Made by a program: the position numbers and the translations under genes
Part shown: positions 21,379 to 36,668 of the stretch, in pieces
Layout: every line of letters begins with the position of its first letter
Position numbering within the stretch: position 1 is the stretch's first letter
Notes under the pieces: model-generated
Told to the model about the DNA's origin: nothing
Seen by the model: only the letters and a program-made list of their open reading frames with translations
Database searches by the model: none
Assembly: GCA_034679345.1 (NCBI GenBank)
Contig: JAXDAY010000028.1
Coordinates: forward strand, 232,665-296,664
Length of the DNA stretch: 64,000 bases
Source of the DNA: Candidatus Eiseniibacteriota bacterium
Lineage (GTDB): Bacteria; Eisenbacteria; RBG-16-71-46; CAIMUX01; VGJL01
Reading direction: 5' to 3'

Positions 21379-22089
21379 ATGAAGAAGATCATGCTCGCAG
21401 TCGCATCGTGGCTCGTGATCCTTGGGGCGGCGGCGCCGTTTTGGGGTTGCGGCCAGACATTCCAGGTCACGCTCACACGTGACGGCACCGCATCGGTCAC
21501 CGGTTCGGTCCAGCTCGAGGGAGCGAAGCGGTCGTTCCAGGGCCAAGCCGACGCGGAAGGGAACATCAGCTGGGACATCGAGGGATGCAGCGGCAGCGCC
21601 AAGGTCGCTCCCAATAGCCAGGTGATCGTGAGCTGCAGCGACCCGCTCTTGATGGAGTGGCCGGACTGCTGGACGCTCGTCTCGGCGAACTGGTCGGCGC
21701 CCGATCTCGGACTCGCCGGCGCGATCCTCGTCGAGCCCGCCGCAAACTTCTACATCGATCCGATCCACGGTGCGATCGTCACCGACGCCGGCTACTCCGC
21801 CTGGCTGCTGAACCTCGACGTGCCGAGCATCGGCCCCACCGCGCTCGTCCTGGATCTGACCTTCGATACGGAGGGTTGCGACGTGGACGGCGTCTGCCTG
21901 AAGGGCCTCGACGTCGCGCTCGTCGAGCCGTTCGATCCACCCGGCCAGGCCCGTCAGCTCGTGCCGACGGAGGGTCTCGGGCTCGACTTCACGGTCTTCC
22001 AGCAAGGCGACTACCACGTCTTCTGCATCGAGGAAGAGACACCCACAGAGAAGGCAACCTGGGGAAAGCTGAAGAGCCTCTATCGGTAG
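21379..22089 (+). CDS. Secreted hypothetical protein with conserved C-terminal PTEKxTWGKLKSLYR tail
   Basis: GGAGGAGG sits 4 nt upstream of the ATG. Signal peptide MKKIMLAVASWLVILGAAAP. Six Cys residues. The overlapping antisense 311-aa ORF was rejected. Confidence 0.7.
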   Translation: MKKIMLAVASWLVILGAAAPFWGCGQTFQVTLTRDGTASVTGSVQLEGAKRSFQGQADAEGNISWDIEGCSGSAKVAPNSQVIVSCSDPLLMEWPDCWTLVSANWSAPDLGLAGAILVEPAANFYIDPIHGAIVTDAGYSAWLLNLDVPSIGPTALVLDLTFDTEGCDVDGVCLKGLDVALVEPFDPPGQARQLVPTEGLGLDFTVFQQGDYHVFCIEEETPTEKATWGKLKSLYR

Positions 22090-22162: not shown

Positions 22163-22936
22163 ATGAGCTCGATCTATGTCTACGGTCTCTTTCAGCTCGC
22201 TGCGGTGGGCCTGTTTCTCGCGTTCACGGAGACGAAGCTGCGCCATCGAGGCGCCACCTTGATCGGCCGGCCGGGCTTCGTCGCCGCTTGCGTACTCGGA
22301 GCGGGGATCGGCGGCCGCCTTCACTTCGTCGCCGAGGGAGTCCTGACCGGAAGGCTCGATTCCGGCGGCATCCTGGCGGCGCTTGACCCTCGAGTCCCCG
22401 GATCCACCTTCTTCGGCGCGATGGTCGGCGCGATCGCAGCGGTTCTCCTGCGCCGTCGGTGCATACCGGGAGGATCGATCGCGCGGCTTCTCGATGATGT
22501 CGTCCCCGGATTCGCGACGGCAATCGCCGTCGGCCGCATCGGGTGCCTCTTGCACGGGTGTTGCCTGGGTGAACCAAGCGGACTCCCATGGGCGATCGTC
22601 TCCGGGGAGGGAGCCGCACGACATCCGCTGCCTCTCTACATCGGTGTCGCGGCCGTCGCCGCCGGTTTCCTTTCGGCGCGCTGGATCGAATGGGATCGGA
22701 TCGCGCGGGTAGTCCCCGGCAGCCGGTTCCTGCTGTTCGCGGCCATCTTCTGCGCCGCTCGGGCGTGGGCGGAAGGCGCTCGCGAGACCGGCCCGGCGCC
22801 CGGATGGGCCCAGCTCGAGTCGGTCGGGATCGCGGCGGGGGCCATGGCGGCGCATCTCACGCGCCGGCGGGGCCACTCTCGCACAAGATCCCCTCTAGGC
22901 CGCGAACGGCGCACACGCTACGCTTCGCGCGCATGA
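22163..22936 (+). CDS. lgt: Prolipoprotein diacylglyceryl transferase family protein (Lgt-like)
   Basis: Polytopic membrane protein with GxGGRLxFV, GRIGCLLHGCCLGEP (Lgt signature G-R-I-G-N-F-x-N-x-E) and HPLPLY (HP-x-x-LYE). The C-terminal tail is Arg-rich. Confidence 0.6.
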   Translation: MSSIYVYGLFQLAAVGLFLAFTETKLRHRGATLIGRPGFVAACVLGAGIGGRLHFVAEGVLTGRLDSGGILAALDPRVPGSTFFGAMVGAIAAVLLRRRCIPGGSIARLLDDVVPGFATAIAVGRIGCLLHGCCLGEPSGLPWAIVSGEGAARHPLPLYIGVAAVAAGFLSARWIEWDRIARVVPGSRFLLFAAIFCAARAWAEGARETGPAPGWAQLESVGIAAGAMAAHLTRRRGHSRTRSPLGRERRTRYASRA

Positions 22937-25673: not shown

Positions 25674-26192
25674 CTAGCGACGGCGCCACAGCTGGCGCAT
25701 CAATCCCACGCCGATCGCCAGGGCGCCGATGATGCCGGCGGTCGCCAGAGGGCTTGCGGTCATCGGCATCGTCCCGGAGGCCGTGGTCGCCTGCTCGCCC
25801 GCGGCATCGCCCGACGGGGGAGCGGCCTCCGTGCTGCCATCGAGCGACTGCGACATCGGAGCCGGGCTCGAGCCGGTCGTGGCAAGCGTGACGCTCGAGA
25901 GATGGAACGTCCCGGGCTCGGGGATCTCGTACTCCACACGGACCTGGTCGCCGGTCTTCACCGTCGCGGGCACGTTGCTCGTCGCATCCCGTATGAAGAC
26001 CATCTGATCGCCGCCAACGATCTGGATGACCAGTGAAGTCGGAGTCAACGACTCGACGATGCCCATGACGGTGCTCGGCGCCTCGGTCAGGGGGTTGGCA
26101 GTTGGATCCTCCTGGCCCGACTGCGCCGAGGCTCCGAATGCGAGGGCCAGGATGAGCGCGCCGGCCATGAGGATGGTTGTATTCCGGTTCAT
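25674..26192 (-). CDS. Secreted sortase-substrate candidate (signal peptide, small beta domain, Ser/Thr/Ala-rich linker, PLATAG + TM + RRR tail)
   Basis: N-terminal signal MNRNTTILMAGALILALAFGASA. C-terminus ...SPLATAGIIGALAIGVGLMRQLWRRR is tripartite (motif, hydrophobic, basic). Paralogous to the 28168-28797 protein. Confidence 0.65.
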   Translation of the reverse strand: MNRNTTILMAGALILALAFGASAQSGQEDPTANPLTEAPSTVMGIVESLTPTSLVIQIVGGDQMVFIRDATSNVPATVKTGDQVRVEYEIPEPGTFHLSSVTLATTGSSPAPMSQSLDGSTEAAPPSGDAAGEQATTASGTMPMTASPLATAGIIGALAIGVGLMRQLWRRR

Positions 26193-26570
26193 TGGATGGC
26201 CTCCTTGCTTGAGGGAGGGGCGCCCGCCCGATCCCCACCATGGAGGTCTCGCCGGCGCCGCCCCCGGGTATCCCTCACGGCAAGTCCGGTGCCATCACGA
26301 CCTCCCGTTTCGGATCGAATGCAACCTCATGAGGGATCGAGCGTTCTTCCTGCGTGACGTGAAATCGTCGAGATCATTCGGTTGCGGATGCTTTGTAAAC
26401 TTTGCCTGCGATTGGAGAGAACTTCACTCGACCGGAGCATGCTCGGGCGCGGAAATCCACAGATCGACCAGTCTTGCTTGGAGCGAATGGTGGCATTGAT
26501 CTTGATGGACCTAATGGGAGAATCGACGCGGGTTGCGCGCGTCTCGGGAGAGCGAAACCTGGGAATCCAT

Positions 26571-27164
26571 ATGAAGGCGGTTCGAAGAACGCTGTCGTCC
26601 CCCTGGATCGAGCGGACGCTCTATGTTCTGGGGAGCGTCTTGCTCGGAGCGTGGCTCGCGGTCCAGGTCGATGCGCGGCTCTACTATGCGCGACATCACG
26701 AACTGTTGGTGGCATCGAGGAGCTTGCCGGCTTCAGCGGTGCCTGACTCGGCGGCCCCCCGATCTGTGATCGGGCTGATCGAGATCCCCAGACTTGGGCT
26801 CTCGTCCGTCGTGGCGGAGGGCACCGACGCGATCAGCCTCTTCCGCGCCGTCGGACACCTGCCGGGAACGCCTTTCCCGGGGCGGCCAGGCAACGTGGTG
26901 CTGGCGGGCCATCGCGACACTTATTTTCGCCCGCTCGCGGCCATCGCCGAGGACGACACCATCCGCATCACGACCCCTTACGGACGGTATGCCTACCAGG
27001 TCACCGGCACGCAGATCGTCCCGCCCAGCAGGACGGATGTGCTCGCGGCGTCGCCCTCTCCGATGCTCACCCTTGTGACCTGCTATCCGTTCCGGTACGT
27101 GGGCCGAGCCCCGCTGCGGTTCATCGTTCAGGCAGCGGAGATCCCGGTCCGATCGGGTCGGTGA
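26571..27164 (+). CDS. Sortase family transpeptidase
   Basis: N-terminal TM anchor. GLIEIPRLGL, VLAGHRDTYF (catalytic His), MLTLVTCYPF (TLxTC catalytic Cys) and RFIV (conserved Arg) align with SrtA-type sortases. Confidence 0.8.
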   Translation: MKAVRRTLSSPWIERTLYVLGSVLLGAWLAVQVDARLYYARHHELLVASRSLPASAVPDSAAPRSVIGLIEIPRLGLSSVVAEGTDAISLFRAVGHLPGTPFPGRPGNVVLAGHRDTYFRPLAAIAEDDTIRITTPYGRYAYQVTGTQIVPPSRTDVLAASPSPMLTLVTCYPFRYVGRAPLRFIVQAAEIPVRSGR

Positions 27165-27894
27165 GACTCATGGGGCCGTTCGGACTCTGGGCCCCGGTTG
27201 TGTTGGCCAGCCCCGGCGGATCCTCCCCAGCGACCGCATCCATCCGATCGCGACAGCGGGGACAGAATGAGGTCATCTGCTCGCAGATCGACACCCGTCC
27301 TCGGGCATCCTGCATCAGGCATCCGGCGGCCTCGCAGTGTTCCAGCCCGAGCGTGTGGCCGATCTCGTGCACGGCGATCTTCGATAGGCGGGCCCGGGCT
27401 CCAGCGGATCCGGCCGCGCCGCGAAGACACCGGAACTTCGAAACCACGCCGACGGGGCGCGTGTAGGAAGCCAACCCGACGAGTCCCCAGTCCGCGTTCG
27501 AGCCGCGCGTGGTCGAGATGTCGCGCGCCGTCACGCCGAGAATCCGATCTCCATCTATCGGGAGAAGCGGCTCAAGAAAGTCGAGAAGCTTCTCCGCGCG
27601 AAAGCGGCCTCGCGGCGGGTAGTAGGCGCTGGCAGGCAAGGGTCGCGGAGCGAGAATCCGAACGACGGCGCCGAGCTCGGCGCCCAGCGCCTGGCCGACA
27701 GCGTCAAGGTCCTCCGCGGAGAGTCCATCGCCGAGCGGCTGCAGATAGACCACGACTCCATCTGAAGGCGCGGCCGCGGACATCCCGGAATTCACGCTCG
27801 ATGCGGCAACCGCTCCCAGCGGCAAGCACAAGGCGAGGATCGCGTGCAGGAGGATCGCCCGCAGGACGAAGCGCGCCGAGCCCGACCCTTCCAC
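27121..27894 (-). CDS. Secreted archaemetzincin-like zinc metalloprotease (peptidase M54-like)
   Basis: Signal peptide. HEIGHTLGLEHCEAAGCLM...CEQMTSFCPRC matches the archaemetzincin HExxHxxGxxHCx4CxMx(n)CxxC signature. Convergent 44-bp overlap with the sortase 3' end. Confidence 0.6.
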   Translation of the reverse strand: MEGSGSARFVLRAILLHAILALCLPLGAVAASSVNSGMSAAAPSDGVVVYLQPLGDGLSAEDLDAVGQALGAELGAVVRILAPRPLPASAYYPPRGRFRAEKLLDFLEPLLPIDGDRILGVTARDISTTRGSNADWGLVGLASYTRPVGVVSKFRCLRGAAGSAGARARLSKIAVHEIGHTLGLEHCEAAGCLMQDARGRVSICEQMTSFCPRCRDRMDAVAGEDPPGLANTTGAQSPNGPMSLTDPIGPGSPLPER

Positions 27895-28167
27895 GCCTCT
27901 CCCTTCGCGCCGGAGCTACCGGCGCCTCCGCGCTTCCCCACATCAGGCGCGTCTGGTGGACCCGCGATACTTCCGCTTGGAGTCCAGGCTGAGTCCCGAC
28001 GCATCGAACCGCACCCAGCACGAGCGATGCGGTTCTCATGCGTGATTCTACGTCACGATGCGCAGAATCAACAAACTTCCCGCGCCGATCGCCGTCGCGG
28101 AACGCGTCCGCGGGATCGAATAAAGCCCGCAAGACGCCGCAGCGCCGGCGCCCGCCTGCGGCAACGA

Positions 28168-28797
28168 CTAGCGCTTCTTCGCCGAACGCCGGGCCAGCCG
28201 CCGGACTCCGAAAGCCGCGCCGACGAGTATGATCCCGGCGACCGCCACAATGGGCATCGCAGTCGCGGTCGCCGGCAACTCCTCCTGCGCTTCCGCCACT
28301 CCCGGCGCCCCCTGCGATTCGGTTCCGGGCGCCATCGAGGCCAGATCCCTCGCCGACCCTTGCGCGACCGGCGCGAACCCGGTGGCGGGAAGAGACATCG
28401 CATACGCTTGGCGGGCCTGCTCTTCCTCGCTCATCCGTTGCGAGAGATTCAAGGTCTGGACCGCCTTCGCGAGATCCGTGCCTCCCTCGATCCTGTCGTA
28501 GCGCACCCGGACCGGATCGCCCGGGAGCATCGCGGCTCCATAGGAGTTCAGAGGATCCAGCGCGAAGACGCGGGACCGGCCGTCGGGGTCGGTGATCTCC
28601 AGCCTGTTCGCCCTCGAGCTCACGACCGTCCCGATCGCGGACTGATCCCCCGAGATGGACAAGCTGCTGCCCGGGGCGACGGCGTTCGAGGAAGATTGGG
28701 ACTCCACCTGCGCGGCCGTTCCCGAGGGAGCGCAAAGCGTCAGACTCAACGACAACAGACAGATCGTGCACAAAGTGGACAGCCTTACGGAAGGCAT
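28168..28797 (-). CDS. Secreted sortase-substrate candidate (paralog; LPATAT + TM + basic tail)
   Basis: Signal peptide MPSVRLSTLCTICLLSLSLTLCAP. Conserved small domain (GDPVRVRYDRIEGG). Internal LPATG. C-terminus ELPATATAMPIVAVAGIILVGAAFGVRRLARRSAKKR. Confidence 0.65.
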   Translation of the reverse strand: MPSVRLSTLCTICLLSLSLTLCAPSGTAAQVESQSSSNAVAPGSSLSISGDQSAIGTVVSSRANRLEITDPDGRSRVFALDPLNSYGAAMLPGDPVRVRYDRIEGGTDLAKAVQTLNLSQRMSEEEQARQAYAMSLPATGFAPVAQGSARDLASMAPGTESQGAPGVAEAQEELPATATAMPIVAVAGIILVGAAFGVRRLARRSAKKR

Positions 28798-29269
28798 CGA
28801 ACACCTCCTTCCAATGCTTGTGCGGCGGCCCTATTGCGCAGCCAACCCGATCGAAGACCCAGGTTCGTGCCGGACCGGAGCCTCAGGCTCGACTTTCGAA
28901 ATGTCTCCGTGGCGCAAGCGGTTAGGAGGATTTCATGGATGGGGCCGCCGTGACGGATGACGGGCGGTATCTGCAATTGCTGCCGTCTTCTGTCGGGATT
29001 GCAGGAGGGCTCGGCTGCCGAAGGGCGGGAGGTGAGGTCTCACGGGCCTGCGAATCCAGAGACCCAGACCAAACGCTTCGAACTCAAGCTGCCCCCCCCG
29101 TCTTGTCGATCCATCCGGTACGGAGCGACCGCGGGTGGGAACTGCCGGGGCCCGTCCCTTCCTGGATGCGGCTTCGAAGCGGGATCCCCATGGAGCGCAA
29201 CCCGATCGGGTCCGGGACGGCCGGACGGAACCGATCAAATGCCGGGACCGGCCTGGGAGACGGACGCAA

Positions 29270-30444
29270 TGTACCGATGGCTTCTGGTTCTACTCGCCCT
29301 CGCCGTTGCGGCGATGCCGGCTTCGGCCGCGCGCAACGCCAACGGCGCGATGGTCGTGCATACAGACAATGCGATCGTTTACACGAACATGGACTACTGC
29401 CCCCACCCAGTCCCGAGCGTCTGCACCGATCTCGTGACGAACTGCACGAAGCTGGTGGAGGAGGAAGAGGCGGTGATCTTCTTCCTCGCCGCCTTTGCCC
29501 CCAGCTCGAGTCCGGGCGTGACGACAATCCAGTTCGGCGTCGAGCACAACCTGCCGAGCGCTGACTACTTCAGCGCGTACAGCGCGTGCGGACCGGACCC
29601 GCTCGAGTTGCCGGACGGCGGATGGCCGTTCGCCGGCGGGAACCCTGAGGTTCCTGGGCAGAGCGGCAACCTCGTCGCTTACAGTGGCCCGGTCTACAGC
29701 CAGTTGTTCCCGTTCTACTGGTTCGCCGCGATCGGCAGCCTGCCGAACACCTACGTTGGCAGCCGCACCTACCCGGCCACGGACGAGGCGAAGTTCGTCG
29801 ACGACGGCAACCCGCCGATCGAGGATCTTTGCACCCTGTTCGGCCGCGTCAACTGGGGCGCGCCCGGCTACAACGACTGCCCGGTCGACCCGCCTCCCCC
29901 GACGGGAGCCTGCTGCTTCGAGGACGGGACCTGCGTCGAGCTCCGCATCGACATCTGCCTTGAGCAGGGCGGCGGCTACCTTGGTGACGGCTCGGTTTGC
30001 GATCCGCAGCCCTGTCCGCAGCCGGAGGCCTGCTGCCTCGACGATGGCTCCTGCGTGATGCTCCTGGCGGATATCTGCCTCTATGTGCAGCATGGGACGC
30101 CGATGGGCATCGGGTCCGATTGCGATCCGAATCCGTGCGGACTGCCGTCACAGGCCTGCTGCTTCGCGGACGGAACGTGCCTCGATCTCACTCCCGAGGC
30201 TTGCCTCGAGCAAGACGGCACCGCGATGGGAGAGGGCTCGATTTGCGAGCAGACGGAGTGCCCGCAGCCCCCGCCGACCGGCGCCTGCTGCCTGAGCGGC
30301 AACGAGTGCGTGGTCCTCACGGCGCCGGAGTGCGACGAACAGGGAGGCATCTACATGGGGGACGGTCAGCCCTGCGACCCGAACCCCTGCGGCATCCCCA
30401 CGGAGAAATCGTCCTGGGGCCGTATCCGCGCGATCTACCGGTAG
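29270..30444 (+). CDS. Secreted Cys-rich protein with four tandem ~41-aa six-cysteine modules and C-terminal PTEKSSWGRIRAIYR tail
   Basis: Signal peptide MYRWLLVLLALAVAAMPASAA. Repeats follow ACC[FL]xDG[ST]C-x8-C-x13-C-x4-C. The upstream part of the track ORF from 28957 lacks any signal or RBS logic. Confidence 0.65.
29908..30405 (+). repeat. Four tandem 120-129-bp coding repeats (Cys-rich 40-43-aa modules)
   Basis: GCCTGCTGC(T/C)TCG...GACGG recurs at 29908, 30028, 30154 and 30283. Each encodes ACC[FL]xDG[ST]C...C...C..PC. Confidence 0.7.
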
Positions 30445-32522: not shown

Positions 32523-33164
32523 TTACGACGCCCCGCCCCCGATCAGGAAGATCGCTCCGAGCAGGAGATAGGTGCCCAAGATCCCTGCGGACAAGACGGC
32601 GCCCGGCCGCCCATGGAGCATCCCGATCGCGTAGAAGGAGTGATGATGGCCGCTCTCCGTCGTACGGCCGGACTCGCGCAGGTCGTAGGGCAGCACGTGC
32701 CAGATGAGCCCGATCGAGGCGACGTCCCGATGAACCAGCGATCCCCGGAGCTGCACGCCCCGCCCGAAGAGCCCGCGCTCTTCCTCCTCCGAGCTGGCGA
32801 GTAGACCCGCCATGCCCTGCACCGCCCACCGCGCGCCGATGCCGTGCGTGATCCGCACGCCCCCCCCGAATCGAGCTTCTTCCTGCCCTGGAGCGAAGAA
32901 GACCGCCAGTCCCAGACTCCGCGTCGGGGCCTCGGAAGAGCGATCCCGTCGCAGCTCGACTCCCCCCTCGGTGTAGAGCCGGAAGTGGGTGGCTCGATAC
33001 GTGGACAGCCGCGTCTCGCCCCCCGCCAGAACGCCGGATTCGAGGAAGGGGCGCAGGCGACGGGGCGACTCCGACGGCGGGTCGGTCGGAGCGGAGCCGC
33101 ACCGACCGGGGATCGCAAGGGACAGCAGAAGCGATATCGCGAGCGGCAGGATCCTTTGAATCAT
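32523..33164 (-). CDS. Hypothetical secreted protein
   Basis: Signal peptide MIQRILPLAISLLLSLAIPG. Purine-rich RBS. Sits between the HAD and SPFH genes on the same strand. No recognisable family. Confidence 0.35.
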   Translation of the reverse strand: MIQRILPLAISLLLSLAIPGRCGSAPTDPPSESPRRLRPFLESGVLAGGETRLSTYRATHFRLYTEGGVELRRDRSSEAPTRSLGLAVFFAPGQEEARFGGGVRITHGIGARWAVQGMAGLLASSEEEERGLFGRGVQLRGSLVHRDVASIGLIWHVLPYDLRESGRTTESGHHHSFYAIGMLHGRPGAVLSAGILGTYLLLGAIFLIGGGAS

Positions 33165-33194
33165 CTCGCACCCCCGGTGAGACAGAACCGCCGC

Positions 33195-33890
33195 TCAGTC
33201 GTCGCGCCCCTCGCGCGCGCTCCGGCCATCGTGACCGGGGAAGTACGGAAGGATCAACCCCAGGTTCGATCCCCGAATCGACACGTCGCAGACCTCGATC
33301 ATCTCGGGGCACTTGGGATTGAATGCGATGGCGAATCCGGCCGCCCGAGCCACGTCGAGGTCGTTGATCGCATCGCCGACGAAGGCGCAACGTTCCAAGG
33401 GGATTCCTTCGCGCGCGGCGATGTCGCGCAGCGCCCTCGCCTTGCCGTCGACGTCATAGGGAGTCGCCTTCCAGCCCGAGAGCCGGTCGGCTTCGTCGAA
33501 GTAGATCCGATTCACGAAGACATCGTCAAAGGGGTGTTCGGGAAGCAGCGTGTCCAGGACGATATCGAGCGTGCCCGAGATGATCGCGAGCTTGTAGCCG
33601 CGGCGCTTGAGCTCCCCAAGGGTCTCGTGCGTCCCGTCGATGAGTTTCAGCTCGCCGATCGCCTCGAGGATCTGATCGCGCGTCGCGGCCGCCCGAATCC
33701 AGTCCTCGACATCGAGCGCGACCCACTCGGCATAGTCGATCCGTCCCTCCCGGTAGTCGACGTAACGCGTCAGGTTTGCCTCGTCGGTCCCGGTGAAGCG
33801 AATGTTCAGGATCTCCCAGACGATCTTGCCCCGGGGATGGACGACCAGGGTGCCGTCCACGTCGAAGCAGATCAGATCGCAGGGGCGCAT
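33195..33890 (-). CDS. HAD-superfamily hydrolase, subfamily IB (phosphoserine phosphatase-like)
   Basis: Motif I DLICFDVDGTLV, motif II ISGT, motif IV GDAINDLDVARAAG. Start at MRPCDL (33890). Confidence 0.75.
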   Translation of the reverse strand: MRPCDLICFDVDGTLVVHPRGKIVWEILNIRFTGTDEANLTRYVDYREGRIDYAEWVALDVEDWIRAAATRDQILEAIGELKLIDGTHETLGELKRRGYKLAIISGTLDIVLDTLLPEHPFDDVFVNRIYFDEADRLSGWKATPYDVDGKARALRDIAAREGIPLERCAFVGDAINDLDVARAAGFAIAFNPKCPEMIEVCDVSIRGSNLGLILPYFPGHDGRSAREGRDD

Positions 33891-34049
33891 TGTTTCCCTC
33901 CCGGCGCGAGGATACCTACCCTGGCCGGGGCGCGCACGATCGCTTTGCCTTCTGTGAGCCAGTCCATTGAATCTGCTATACTTATAATGATGCGCTTTCG
34001 CGCCCCGAGGCGGCCGCGGCCGTCGACCCAACACCCGGAGGCACTCAGC

Positions 34050-36668
34050 ATGCTGCGTCCCGCATCCCGCCCGGCAATCCCATTCGTCCTGATCTCGATC
34101 ATCGCCGGAATCGTCTCGGCGTCGGTCGCCGCCGAGCTGCCCCTCTGGGCGCCGGGGGACCCCGATCCGACGATCCCCTTCTCGGATCGTTATCCCGCTG
34201 CGATCCTTGCCGCCACGCGGGACGACGCCCGCGCCATCGTCGAGACGGGAATCGACGTCGAGTCGGTTCGTCCGGTAGACGGGCGGTGGCTCGTCCGGGC
34301 GAACATCGACGCGGCGGAGGAGCGGGATCTCGCGCGATTCGATCGCGAGATCCTCAAGCTGCGCAACCTCACCCTCGAGGCCCGTCGCGATGCGGAGCTG
34401 CGCGGAGAGAGGGCCTGGCCCACCTGGGCCGAATACGAGGGGTGGATGCAGGCGGTCGCGGCGGCGCACCCGGACATCTGCAGGCTCGTCTCCCTCGGGG
34501 CTTCGGTCCAGGGACGAAACCTCTGGTGCCTCAAGATCAGCGACAATCCCGACCTCGAGGAGGATGAGCCGGAGTTCAAGTACTCCTCCTCGATCCACGG
34601 GGATGAGGTCACGGGCATGGAGCTCTGCCGCCGGCTGATCTCCCTGCTCACGGACAGCTACGGAGTCGATCCTACGCTGACGAGCTATGTCGATCAGATG
34701 GAGATCTGGATCTGCCCGATGCACAACCCGGACGGCTTCGTCGCCGTCTCCCGATACAACGCCCATGGAGTCGACTTGAACCGCACCTTCCCCGATCCGG
34801 TGACCGATCCGTACGACGACCCCGCCGGGCGCGAGCCCGAGGTGCAGCACTTCATGTACTTCGGCTACGACCACCGATTCAACCTCTCGGCGAACTACCA
34901 TGGCGGGGCGCTCGTGGTGAACTACCCCTGGGACTGCCAGGCCGCCTACACGCCCGATGACGACATGATCCGGGAGTTCTCTCTCGGCTACGCCGCCTTG
35001 AACCCGCCCATGTACAACAACCCGGAGTTCCCGCAGGGAGTGACGATCGGGTGGGCCTGGTACATCATCCACGGCGGAATGCAGGACTGGTGCTACGAGT
35101 GGCGCTCCGACATCGATGTGACGATCGAGGTTTCCGAGACGAAGTGGCCGAACTGGACCCTGATGGACCAGTTCTGGAACGAGAACCGCGACGCGATGCT
35201 CTATTACATGAGCCGCGCCCTGCTCGGCGTGCGGGGGATCGTGACCGACGCCGAGACCGGGGAGCCCCTCGACGCCACCATCGATGTCGTTCAGATCGGA
35301 AAGACGATCCGCACCGACCCCGATGTCGGCGATTATCACCGATTGCTCCTTCCCGGCACCTATACCTTGCACGCGGAGGCCTTCGGCTATCTCCCGCAGA
35401 CGATCCCAGGGATCGTCGTCGGAAGCGGCGGCGCGACGCGCCGGGACATCCAGATGGTCCCGCTGCCGAGCTATCAGGTGAGCGGCACGGTGACCGATGA
35501 GGAAACGGGCGAGCCCTTGGCGGCGACGATCGAGGCCCGACGCTACGACACGCAGGAGCTCGTCGAGACCGTGGCGGCCAATCCCGTCACGGGCGCCTAC
35601 GCGATGACCCTGCAGACTTACACCTACGATCTCCGGGTCACCGCCGAGGGGCACTCCCCCGTCGTCCGGCAGGTCGTCGTCGACCAGGACCGCGTCGAGG
35701 ACTTCCAGCTCCCATCGAACGCGAATCGGATCCTCGTCGTGCGAGACGGCGCGACGACGCGCATGGCCGACGATCTCGTCTCGCTGGGCTTCACGACGAC
35801 CGTTGAGACCGCAACGGTGACCGACCCGTCGTCCTGGAACGGATACCGGCTGCTTGTCTGGAGCGCCGGGCCGAACGCCGATCCGATCGCCGACGCCGTG
35901 AAGCGTGGAGCCATCGAGGCATACGTCGCCGCGGGCGGCCGGATCCTGATCGAGGGAGGCCAGATCGCATACGACGTCTTCCGCACGCCGGGCTATCCCT
36001 CATTCGGCGAGAACGTCCTGCACTGTTCGCAGTGGGACGTCAGCAACGCCGGGACGATCTCCATCGCGGCCGGAGCGGAGAACCACGCCCTGGTGACGAC
36101 CCCGAACGCCCTGCCGTCGCAGTACGCCATCCAGTACACCGAGGTCGGGGATCAGGACGCCGTGCTCCCGAGAGCCGAGGCGACTCTGATCTACAAGACG
36201 ACGAGCTACCCGAACGACGCCGGGATCGTGGCCTTCGACGATGCCCCCGAGAACCCGGCGATCGGCCAGATCGTCTTCTACGCTTTCAACTACGCGCGAT
36301 TGACCGATCTTGCGAACGCAAAGAGGCTGCTCGAGAACTCGGTGACCTACCTCGACCGGACCGATCCCGCCGCGCTCGACGGCGATCTCGGTCCCGCGCT
36401 CTCCTGGCTCGGACCGGCTTATCCAAACCCCGCGACGGGGATCGTGCGCTTCCGGATCGATCCGGCGGCCGGAGCGGTCCACGCCGAGATCTACGATCCG
36501 CAGGGACGCCGCGTATTCGCAGAGGCCCTCGACGCGGGGATCTCGCCGGTCCTCTCCTGGGACGGACGGACGGACCTCGGGCGCCCGGCGGCGCGCGGGA
36601 TCTACTTCCTCCGCGTCCGCGACGGGCGCAAGAGTGCCGGCGTCCCGTTCCTTTGGCTGAGGCCTTAG
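34050..36668 (+). CDS. Secreted M14 metallocarboxypeptidase with carboxypeptidase-regulatory-like domains and T9SS-type (type A) C-terminal sorting domain
   Basis: Signal peptide. M14 zinc motif region (SSIHGDEVTG...NYHGGALVVNYPWD). Two CarbopepD_reg-like beta-sandwich segments. The last ~80 aa (YPNPATGIVRFRI...AEIYDPQGRRVFAE...SWDGRTDLGRPAARGIYFLRVRDGRKSAGVPFLWLRP) match the Por/T9SS CTD pattern. Confidence 0.75.
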   Translation: MLRPASRPAIPFVLISIIAGIVSASVAAELPLWAPGDPDPTIPFSDRYPAAILAATRDDARAIVETGIDVESVRPVDGRWLVRANIDAAEERDLARFDREILKLRNLTLEARRDAELRGERAWPTWAEYEGWMQAVAAAHPDICRLVSLGASVQGRNLWCLKISDNPDLEEDEPEFKYSSSIHGDEVTGMELCRRLISLLTDSYGVDPTLTSYVDQMEIWICPMHNPDGFVAVSRYNAHGVDLNRTFPDPVTDPYDDPAGREPEVQHFMYFGYDHRFNLSANYHGGALVVNYPWDCQAAYTPDDDMIREFSLGYAALNPPMYNNPEFPQGVTIGWAWYIIHGGMQDWCYEWRSDIDVTIEVSETKWPNWTLMDQFWNENRDAMLYYMSRALLGVRGIVTDAETGEPLDATIDVVQIGKTIRTDPDVGDYHRLLLPGTYTLHAEAFGYLPQTIPGIVVGSGGATRRDIQMVPLPSYQVSGTVTDEETGEPLAATIEARRYDTQELVETVAANPVTGAYAMTLQTYTYDLRVTAEGHSPVVRQVVVDQDRVEDFQLPSNANRILVVRDGATTRMADDLVSLGFTTTVETATVTDPSSWNGYRLLVWSAGPNADPIADAVKRGAIEAYVAAGGRILIEGGQIAYDVFRTPGYPSFGENVLHCSQWDVSNAGTISIAAGAENHALVTTPNALPSQYAIQYTEVGDQDAVLPRAEATLIYKTTSYPNDAGIVAFDDAPENPAIGQIVFYAFNYARLTDLANAKRLLENSVTYLDRTDPAALDGDLGPALSWLGPAYPNPATGIVRFRIDPAAGAVHAEIYDPQGRRVFAEALDAGISPVLSWDGRTDLGRPAARGIYFLRVRDGRKSAGVPFLWLRP

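Follow-up and report, generated by a model that had tools for sequence, protein, structure and literature searches.

Why two secreted proteins with unrelated bodies should end in the same short peptide is the question raised by a stretch of 64,000 nucleotides (nt) from a Candidatus Eiseniibacteriota bacterium (contig JAXDAY010000028.1, positions 232,665 to 296,664), referred to here as the window and having a G+C content of 66.7%. Two of its genes, encoding protein 1 and protein 2, finish in a shared C-terminal tail, which an original prediction, made from the letters of the DNA alone, had taken for a sorting or anchoring tag. Comparison across genomes suggests that the tail is, on balance, likely to be an undescribed, non-tripartite C-terminal sorting or anchoring tag of secreted proteins. 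The two proteins and their tails are laid out as follows.

21379..22089, + strand: protein 1, 236 amino acids (aa), with a lipoprotein-like signal peptide (..AAAPFWGC24G), a beta-rich six-cysteine body (residues ~27-216), the tail and a TAG stop
22036..22086, + strand: tail copy 1, E-T-P-T-E-K-A-T-W-G-K-L-K-S-L-Y-R, with the stop codon (22087-22089) directly after it
22036-22056, + strand: linker of tail copy 1
22057-22086, + strand: invariant core of tail copy 1, TWGKLKSLYR
29269..30444, + strand: protein 2, 391 aa, with a type I signal peptide (..AMPASA/ARNANG), an N-terminal domain of ~190 aa, four six-cysteine repeats, the tail and a TAG stop
29911-30390, + strand: the four repeats of protein 2 (residues 215-374), CCxxDGxC-x7-C-x13-16-C-xPNPC, for which there is no Pfam model
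30391..30441, + strand: tail copy 2, G-I-P-T-E-K-S-S-W-G-R-I-R-A-I-Y-R, with the stop codon (30442-30444) directly after it
30412-30441, + strand: core of tail copy 2, SWGRIRAIYR

Translation of 22042-22089 gave PTEKATWGKLKSLYR and that of 30397-30444 gave PTEKSSWGRIRAIYR, each running directly into a stop codon (protein 1 ends in ...ETPTEKATWGKLKSLYR and protein 2 in ...GIPTEKSSWGRIRAIYR), with 8 identical and 5 conservative positions between the two. A search of all six frames of the window with the tail regular expression matched only these two sites, and the back-translated pattern TGGGGNMRNMTNMRNNNNMTNTAYMGNTRR was found twice, against 0.00 matches expected (100 shuffles). The preceding bodies were judged to be unrelated from a best BLASTP E-value of 0.11; protein 1 contains 7 cysteines, one of them within the lipobox-like FWGC, and protein 2 contains 30, of which 24 lie in the four repeats. 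The proposal of one tail on two unrelated proteins was therefore confirmed by translation, by the pattern search and by BLASTP. The positions originally given for the tails were likewise correct, whereas the start given for protein 2 (29270) is out of frame, its ATG (MYRWLL...) lying at 29269. Across the 51 nt that encode the tails the two copies are identical at only 28, and the conserved T, K, G and Y residues differ synonymously, which rules out a recent partial duplication of the DNA; nor is the tail restricted to two proteins, being found on many different bodies. No hydrophobic stretch is encoded past either tail stop codon, and stop-codon read-through into a hidden transmembrane and arginine segment was rejected, as there was no consistent extension.

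Conservation and scale of the tail

The tail was kept in all 14 homologues of protein 1, at identities down to ~42%, and terminated 109 of the best 120 of the 515 homologues of protein 2 found at E<=1e-3, which belong to Candidatus Eisenbacteria where named. The remaining protein 2 homologues were fragments or carried 1-6 extra residues, apart from one that ended in another C-terminal domain. In both families the tail is retained while the bodies diverge to ~35-45% identity, and among the homologues of protein 2 (340-680 aa, with varying numbers of repeats) the repeat-plus-tail module is joined to other N-terminal domains, such as PPC in homologue P0105. Homologues of protein 1 end in [STA]-W-G-x-[LIV]-[KR]-x-x-[YFH]-R followed by the stop, with variable residues at the positions of PTEK (PTLD, PVEG, SVKQ and others). 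The predicted motif is thus real in its C-terminal part, while PTEK, which had been included in it, does not belong to the conserved portion.

The scale of the phenomenon was established with a strict DNA pattern, ACNTGGGGNNNNATHAARNNNNNNTAYMGNTRR, encoding T-W-G-x-I-K-x-x-Y-R-stop and scanned in one genome per Genome Taxonomy Database (GTDB) species. At least 120 loci were found in these species-representative genomes, and 125 of the 126 matches listed were real ends of open reading frames (ORFs). The consensus of the strict set is (C)..P-[TV]-P-[VT]-E-x-[ST]-T-W-G-x-I-K-[AS]-L-Y-R-COOH. Several of its positions are not forced by the pattern and are nevertheless conserved among 122 tails, namely P at -17, T, V or S at -16, P or A at -15, V or T at -14, E at -13, S or T at -11, A or S at -4 and L, M or I at -3. 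The strict pattern recovers only 46 of the 123 tails in an unbiased set of homologues. A broader consensus of ~17 residues is given as (Cys)-P-[TV]-P-[VT]-E-x-[ST]-[TS]-W-G-x-[ILV]-[KR]-[AS]-x-[YF]-[RK]-COOH, within which the invariant core consists of W-G, then [ILV]-[KR], then [YF]-[RK] at the free carboxylate; the tail peptide with its free C-terminus is represented by TPVEESTWGAIKALYR. A further 30 variant tails were present in the same loci, bringing the number of tail ORFs to at least 155 in 119 loci, and in 27 of the 119 two or more tail genes lie within 8 kb. The position of the motif is almost strictly terminal, internal occurrences being found just four times, at 1, 1, 6 and 13 residues from the end. 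A protein search with a 40-aa tail profile (A4) returned only 10 candidates and 8 short fragments.

All of the tail loci listed are from metagenome-assembled genomes (MAGs). Among the 120 loci listed, the label is Candidatus Eisenbacteria or Eiseniibacteriota for about 39, Latescibacterota for 8, Krumholzibacteriota for 5 and Zixibacteriota for 1; the few labelled Gemmatimonadota, Acidobacteriota, gammaproteobacterium or Limnocylindria may be due to mis-binning or to the labels chosen by submitters. In IMG/VR only four contigs, classed there as viral (L126-L129), contain ORFs ending in the tail, for example in TWGGIKAFYR directly before the stop, and these ORFs could stem from the host, from the flanks of prophages or from wrongly classified contigs.

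At the invariant residues every synonymous codon occurs, among them the six for Arg and the four for Gly, and the mean nucleotide identity of the 30-nt core is 72%, despite the fact that seven of its ten codons are constrained by the pattern. Full use of synonymous codons indicates that selection acts on the peptide and not on a DNA element. The same codon diversity led to the rejection of a repeat or cassette at the level of the DNA. As a separate observation, TAG is the stop codon of 63% of tail genes and of 34% of ORFs from the same loci filtered by G+C content at third codon positions (odds ratio 3.3, p = 5e-8). TAG follows Arg in general in 29% of cases, the bias was seen in both high-GC and lower-GC loci, and both window copies end in TAG.

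Cargo proteins and predicted structure of the tail

Complete tail proteins, of which 93 were available, are typically small (median length 232 aa) and contain a median of 6 cysteines. A signal peptide was assigned heuristically at the N-terminus of 89 of the 93, as well as in both window proteins; most are of type I and a few are lipoprotein-like, that of protein 1 among them. Cysteine is enriched at -18 to -21, and 62 of the 93 have one within -26 to -17. After removal of the signal peptide and tail, the 93 bodies fell into 55 clusters without any BLAST relationship to one another. The bodies matched 16 Pfam families, which include Beta_helix/NosD/Pmp, LTD, CHRD, CBM_20, CBM96, NHL and several DUFs, together with the NCBIfam families choice_anch_V (choice-of-anchor V), DNRLRE_dom, a ScyF-like PEP-CTERM family and the MXAN_6652 MYXO-CTERM-anchored family. 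In other lineages these NCBIfam body families bear other C-terminal anchors.

No C-terminal sorting-domain model was among those that the 93 tail proteins matched, and neither TIGR04183 nor PF18962, the models for the sorting domain of type IX secretion systems (T9SS), matched any of them. The two window proteins and the isolated tails likewise gave no match to these two models at E<=10, and the isolated tails had no match in Pfam and NCBIfam at the same threshold. No paper describing the motif was found in full-text literature searches with motif strings or with Eisenbacteria combined with secretion or T9SS. The tail therefore did not match a described domain in Pfam, NCBIfam or the searches for motif strings, and it probably belongs among the C-terminal sorting signals while matching no curated model or paper found.

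The physical properties of the tail set it apart from membrane-anchored signals. Over the final 30 aa, the highest Kyte-Doolittle mean of any 15 residues had a median of 0.45 and reached 1.47 at most, so that a transmembrane segment is absent; the last 10 residues carry a net charge of about +2.2, and the terminal basic content consists of a single R or K at the end plus one K or R at -5, with no Arg cluster. The exclusion of LPXTG-, exosortase- and rhombosortase-type signals that had been made from the window therefore holds across the tail proteins, as does that of a T9SS C-terminal domain, given the lack of TIGR04183 matches.

In AlphaFold2 models the tail lies outside the predicted fold in both window proteins. 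For protein 1 (alignment of 12 sequences) the beta-rich body was modelled confidently up to the conserved Cys at about residue 216, with a predicted local distance difference test (pLDDT) score of 80-94, and residues 220-236 as coil at 33-35. For protein 2 (66 sequences) the mean pLDDT was 93, with residues 366-382 as coil and W383-Y390 as an alpha-helix whose pLDDT of ~72 drops to 49. In such models the tail looks like an exposed linear recognition peptide and not like part of a domain. If it is helical, the conserved residues W-9, [ILV]-6, [KR]-5, [YF]-2 and [RK]-1 (i, i+3, i+4, i+7, i+8) would form one face, with the variable positions -7 and -3 opposite. Protein 1 had no match in Pfam or NCBIfam, and a fold search of its body against PDB yielded generic beta-sandwich matches only (TM-score <=0.3).

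Relation to known sorting systems and competing explanations

The closest point of comparison is the T9SS type A sorting domain (TIGR04183 / PF18962 Por_Secre_tail, with FlgD_ig-like variants), an example of which is present in the window on a protein that does not bear the tail.

32844..36668, + strand: M14 carboxypeptidase, 1274 aa (Pfam Peptidase_M14, 8.7e-57), with CarboxypepD_reg domains and weak FlgD_ig and Por_Secre_tail matches
36366-36665, + strand: its T9SS type A sorting domain, the last ~100 aa (TIGR04183, 31.6 bits against a cutoff of 23)

Among M14 carboxypeptidases some cleave basic residues from the C-terminus, and the tail finishes in Arg or Lys. As positive controls for the TIGR04183 model, eight of eight C-terminal domains from this lineage passed (29.7-43 bits against the cutoff of 23), including that of the window M14 carboxypeptidase and those of six neighbours of tail genes. 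The domain and the tail were seen to replace one another. In a homologue of protein 2 (P0088) a TIGR04183 domain (36.3 bits) follows the last PNPC in the place of the tail, and in locus L107 two TIGR04183 proteins flank a tail protein of 206 aa, the body of which shows homology to the N-terminal domains of both (E = 4e-15 and 4e-23). No protein was seen to carry both signals. These two cases and the mutual exclusion indicate that tail and T9SS domain are alternative C-terminal addresses for the same kinds of cargo. The two are divided by size, the tail being found on small proteins and the T9SS domain on proteins of 450-1300 aa. TIGR04183 cargo is also the leading recurrent neighbour of tail genes in the 120 loci listed, with about 30 large TIGR04183 proteins beside them; Ser/Thr kinases come next and no other family recurs. 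MAGs labelled Candidatus Eisenbacteria, like other tail-bearing MAGs, commonly encode bona fide TIGR04183 domains.

Both signals thus occupy the extreme C-terminus of diverse Sec-exported bodies in the same genomes, are exchanged for one another at a shared junction, both among homologues and among tandem paralogues, and finish with a hydrophobic or aromatic residue followed by a basic one (..VLL[RK] in the domain, ..LY[RK] in the tail). They differ in that the tail has 17 aa instead of 70-100 and no immunoglobulin (Ig)-like sandwich, a linker and an eight-residue helix being predicted in its place. The type A domain is a 70-100-aa Ig-like beta-sandwich of seven strands, and proteins with a TIGR04183-type domain have been described as restricted to Bacteroidota (PMC10202324). 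The same review reports for HBP35 that the last 22 aa of the C-terminal domain are enough for T9SS secretion of green fluorescent protein, and that the last 13 residues, with the lysines of motif E, are required, in relation to PorV (PMC10202324). Homology of the tail to the T9SS domain was considered and rejected: P-x-P-V-E-x-S-T resembles PNPFNPxT by eye, and hhalign produced the same alignment without support for it.

Other known signals share some of these features. Small sorting signals combine a motif, a transmembrane helix and an Arg cluster (bioRxiv 10.1101/2023.06.07.544157). Like the tail, the LPXTG/sortase, PEP-CTERM/exosortase, GlyGly-CTERM/rhombosortase, MYXO-CTERM (and related)/myxosortase and PGF-CTERM/archaeosortase systems rely on a short C-terminal motif that is carried by many unrelated secreted proteins and is restricted to particular lineages, and the body families overlap (choice_anch_V, DNRLRE, ScyF-like and MXAN_6652-like). 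The cysteine frequently found upstream of the tail (62/93) loosely recalls the Cys-containing tripartite signals. Unlike these, however, the tail has no hydrophobic segment and only one terminal R or K.

A different likeness is offered by the secretin S-domain, a short C-terminal peptide that becomes helical when bound by a pilotin lipoprotein. Like the tail, it is a stretch at the C-terminus that is disordered and not part of the fold, that would turn into a short amphipathic helix on binding and that would serve outer-membrane targeting; secretin and pilotin are nevertheless one substrate and one partner, whereas a single tail motif is shared by very many cargos, and the two sequences are not similar. 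Exact C-terminal motifs with an aromatic residue at or near the end, read by envelope machinery, are also known from the beta-signal of outer-membrane proteins, whose C-terminal aromatic residue is read by BamA/BamD, and from Lpp, whose C-terminal ..YRK (compare ..Y-R in the tail) is cross-linked to peptidoglycan. The last residue of the tail is R or K and not aromatic, unlike that of the beta-signal, and in place of barrels the bodies consist of soluble domains that are beta-rich or made up of repeats. As the terminal residue is mostly Arg, and protein 2 has no Lys in its last 11 residues, Lys is not required and an Lpp-type cross-link between Lys and meso-diaminopimelic acid is not general. 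Lys cross-linking as in Lpp was accordingly rejected as a general mechanism.

The tail is real, widespread and strongly selected, and in every comparative test applied it behaves as a sorting signal would. The tag reading put forward in the original prediction is supported by the signal peptides (89/93), by the bodies drawn from anchor-bearing families and by the T9SS domain found in the tail's place. As to which route it would serve, there is about an even chance that the tail is the address label of an undescribed sorting route in uncultured phyla of the Fibrobacteres-Chlorobi-Bacteroidetes (FCB) group (Eisenbacteria, Latescibacterota, Krumholzibacteriota, Zixibacteriota), whether as a minimal, fourth kind of signal for the T9SS, served by a dedicated shuttle, or as an entirely separate outer-membrane or surface system that would have its own receptor or sortase-like enzyme. 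Taken separately, the idea that the tail feeds into the T9SS route, or into a lineage-specific shuttle or adaptor, is the preferred one but can be put forward only tentatively, and a separate pathway with its own receptor is similarly tentative.

Under the tag reading, cargo would be exported by Sec to the periplasm, where the final structural element of the body, in many cases with a Cys at its end, would lead into an extended P-x-P-[VT]-E-x-[ST] linker and then into an amphipathic basic helix of 8-10 residues, [TS]-W-G-x-[ILV]-[KR]-[AS]-x-[YF]-[RK], whose free carboxylate is the end of the protein. The tail would remain outside the folded body after export, and a dedicated envelope factor may read one helical face (W-9, I-6, K-5, Y-2, R-1) together with the free C-terminus and so determine where the protein ends up, the outer membrane or the cell surface being the most probable place. 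The tail would in this way act as a short alternative to the T9SS type A domain of ~80-100 aa, mainly for small proteins (median 232 aa).

Several results count against this account. Clustering of neighbours in the 120 loci yielded no candidate receptor or sorting enzyme, and the window's remaining genes are mostly housekeeping. The hydrophobic moment does not discriminate between helix (0.49) and strand (0.48), and the helix itself was predicted with moderate confidence only. The T9SS link in particular is weakened by the lack of any match of TIGR04183 or PF18962 to the tail, by an hhalign probability of 0.6% (E = 0.1) for the tail against the lineage's own T9SS domains, and by the recognition of type A domains as folded Ig-like domains (PMC10202324). 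Moreover, no Bacteroidota label occurs among the 120 listed tail loci, though the T9SS is abundant there, so that a T9SS link would need a lineage-specific adaptor.

An unlikely alternative is a non-covalent anchor independent of the T9SS, in which the basic amphipathic helix attaches directly to some component of the envelope (for example lipopolysaccharide, the phosphates of lipids, peptidoglycan or an outer-membrane protein of high abundance) and thereby retains small secreted proteins at the envelope, similar in function to GW, WxL or SLH modules but far shorter. The charge of about +2, the interfacial W and Y, the missing transmembrane segment and the short helix predicted outside the fold all agree with this, as do the presence of the tail on proteins with lipoprotein-like as well as type I signal peptides and the lack of a dedicated enzyme gene nearby. 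A helix of 9-10 residues is, however, short for stable lipid binding, the invariant W-G and the strict exact C-terminus point to a specific protein receptor over generic electrostatics, and the crossing of the outer membrane by bodies resembling carbohydrate-binding modules (CBMs), beta-helices and adhesins would be left unexplained. No SLH, LysM, GW, WxL or dockerin modules (>=40 aa) were among the 16 Pfam families of the 93 tail proteins. A further, improbable reading makes the tail a dockerin-like docking peptide of a multi-protein complex outside the cell, by which many small proteins plug into repeated modules of a large scaffold, possibly the neighbouring T9SS cargo. It would suit tail genes that are small (median 232 aa), often in tandem arrays and often beside large TIGR04183 proteins, and that encode CBM and beta-helix bodies. 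A repeated receptor module was not found, though, genes for secreted proteins cluster in any case, and the same bodies with either tail or T9SS domain fit alternative addressing better than a subunit-scaffold relationship.

Processing or turnover, in which a periplasmic or surface protease binding the C-terminus removes the tail as a maturation step or degron, possibly together with a carboxypeptidase directed at the last residue, Arg or Lys, seems very improbable. The requirement for a free C-terminus ending in R or K agrees with it, as does the occurrence, in these genomes and in the window itself, of M14 carboxypeptidases that bear T9SS domains. Yet canonical PDZ and tail-specific proteases prefer non-polar C-termini, a degron would be hard to explain on hundreds of unrelated secreted proteins conserved over several phyla, and the presence of a genuine sorting domain in the tail's place speaks for a role as an address. 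That the tail is no tag at all, being the inherited C-terminus of one superfamily or a translated DNA element such as a repeat or recombination site, deserves hardly any credence. Some bodies are indeed paralogous in tandem and TAG stops are over-represented after the tail, but this explanation is effectively refuted by the 55 unrelated clusters with different Pfam domains, the codon diversity, the two window copies identical at 28 of 51 nt and the position of the tail outside the predicted folds.

The reading as the address label of an undescribed route, if true, would concern the shortest bacterial C-terminal sorting signal of which we are aware, and to our knowledge the first small one without the architecture of motif, transmembrane helix and Arg cluster. 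A dedicated sorting machine came to light through each of LPXTG, PEP-CTERM, GlyGly-CTERM, MYXO-CTERM and the T9SS domain, and C-terminal sorting signals are the main predictor of surface proteins in uncultured bacteria. The tail marks many secreted proteins in each genome, most of them annotated as hypothetical, in phyla without cultured members, and a model of it would label a large surface or secreted proteome that is at present invisible. It would also provide a precise handle on its partner machinery through phylogenetic profiling or co-folding, and a test of whether a peptide of ~10 residues, and not a folded domain or transmembrane anchor, specifies outer-membrane sorting. If the reading is true, so short a tag would be attractive for the engineering of surface display.

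Neighbouring genes in the window

Further genes lie next to or between the two tail genes.

22163-22936, + strand: lgt-like gene, adjoining protein 1 downstream (Pfam LGT, 81 bits)
25674-26192, - strand: small secreted protein, candidate sortase substrate
26382-27164, + strand: sortase, best match NF058671 'class D sortase, LPxTATN-specific' (132 bits, below the cutoff of 140)
27121-27894, - strand: archaemetzincin-like (metzincin-like) gene, between the two sortase substrates
28168-28797, - strand: small secreted protein, candidate sortase substrate

The lgt-like gene passed the Pfam LGT model and remained far below the NCBIfam Lgt cutoffs (17 bits against 119 and 38 against 334), and is therefore regarded as a divergent paralogue of the Lgt family. 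Its adjacency to protein 1 had been mentioned as possibly meaningful for the tail, which was not borne out. The adjacency is kept beside the protein 1 family in related contigs (L001-L005), but LGT did not recur beside other tail genes among the neighbours in the 120 loci, so that the link is specific to the protein 1 family and uninformative on the tail. That family has a conserved lipobox-like FWGC, LGGC or LSGC, and the lgt-like gene may encode a dedicated acyltransferase for it.

In five loci (L029, L032, L061, L067 and L091) a Ser/Thr protein kinase gene lies upstream of the tail gene on the same strand, a recurrence that may reflect the abundance of kinases in these genomes.

The sortase locus (25674-28797) lies between the two tail genes and constitutes a sorting system separate from the tail. 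Its candidate substrates carry classical tripartite signals, LPxTA[ST] followed by a transmembrane segment and basic residues, which read ..MPMTAS-PLATAGIIGALAIGVGLM-RQLWRRR and ..LPATAT-AMPIVAVAGIILVGAAF-GVRRLARRSAKKR. Three kinds of C-terminal sorting signal, namely the tail, the T9SS domain and the sortase signal, are thus present within ~15 kb of the window.

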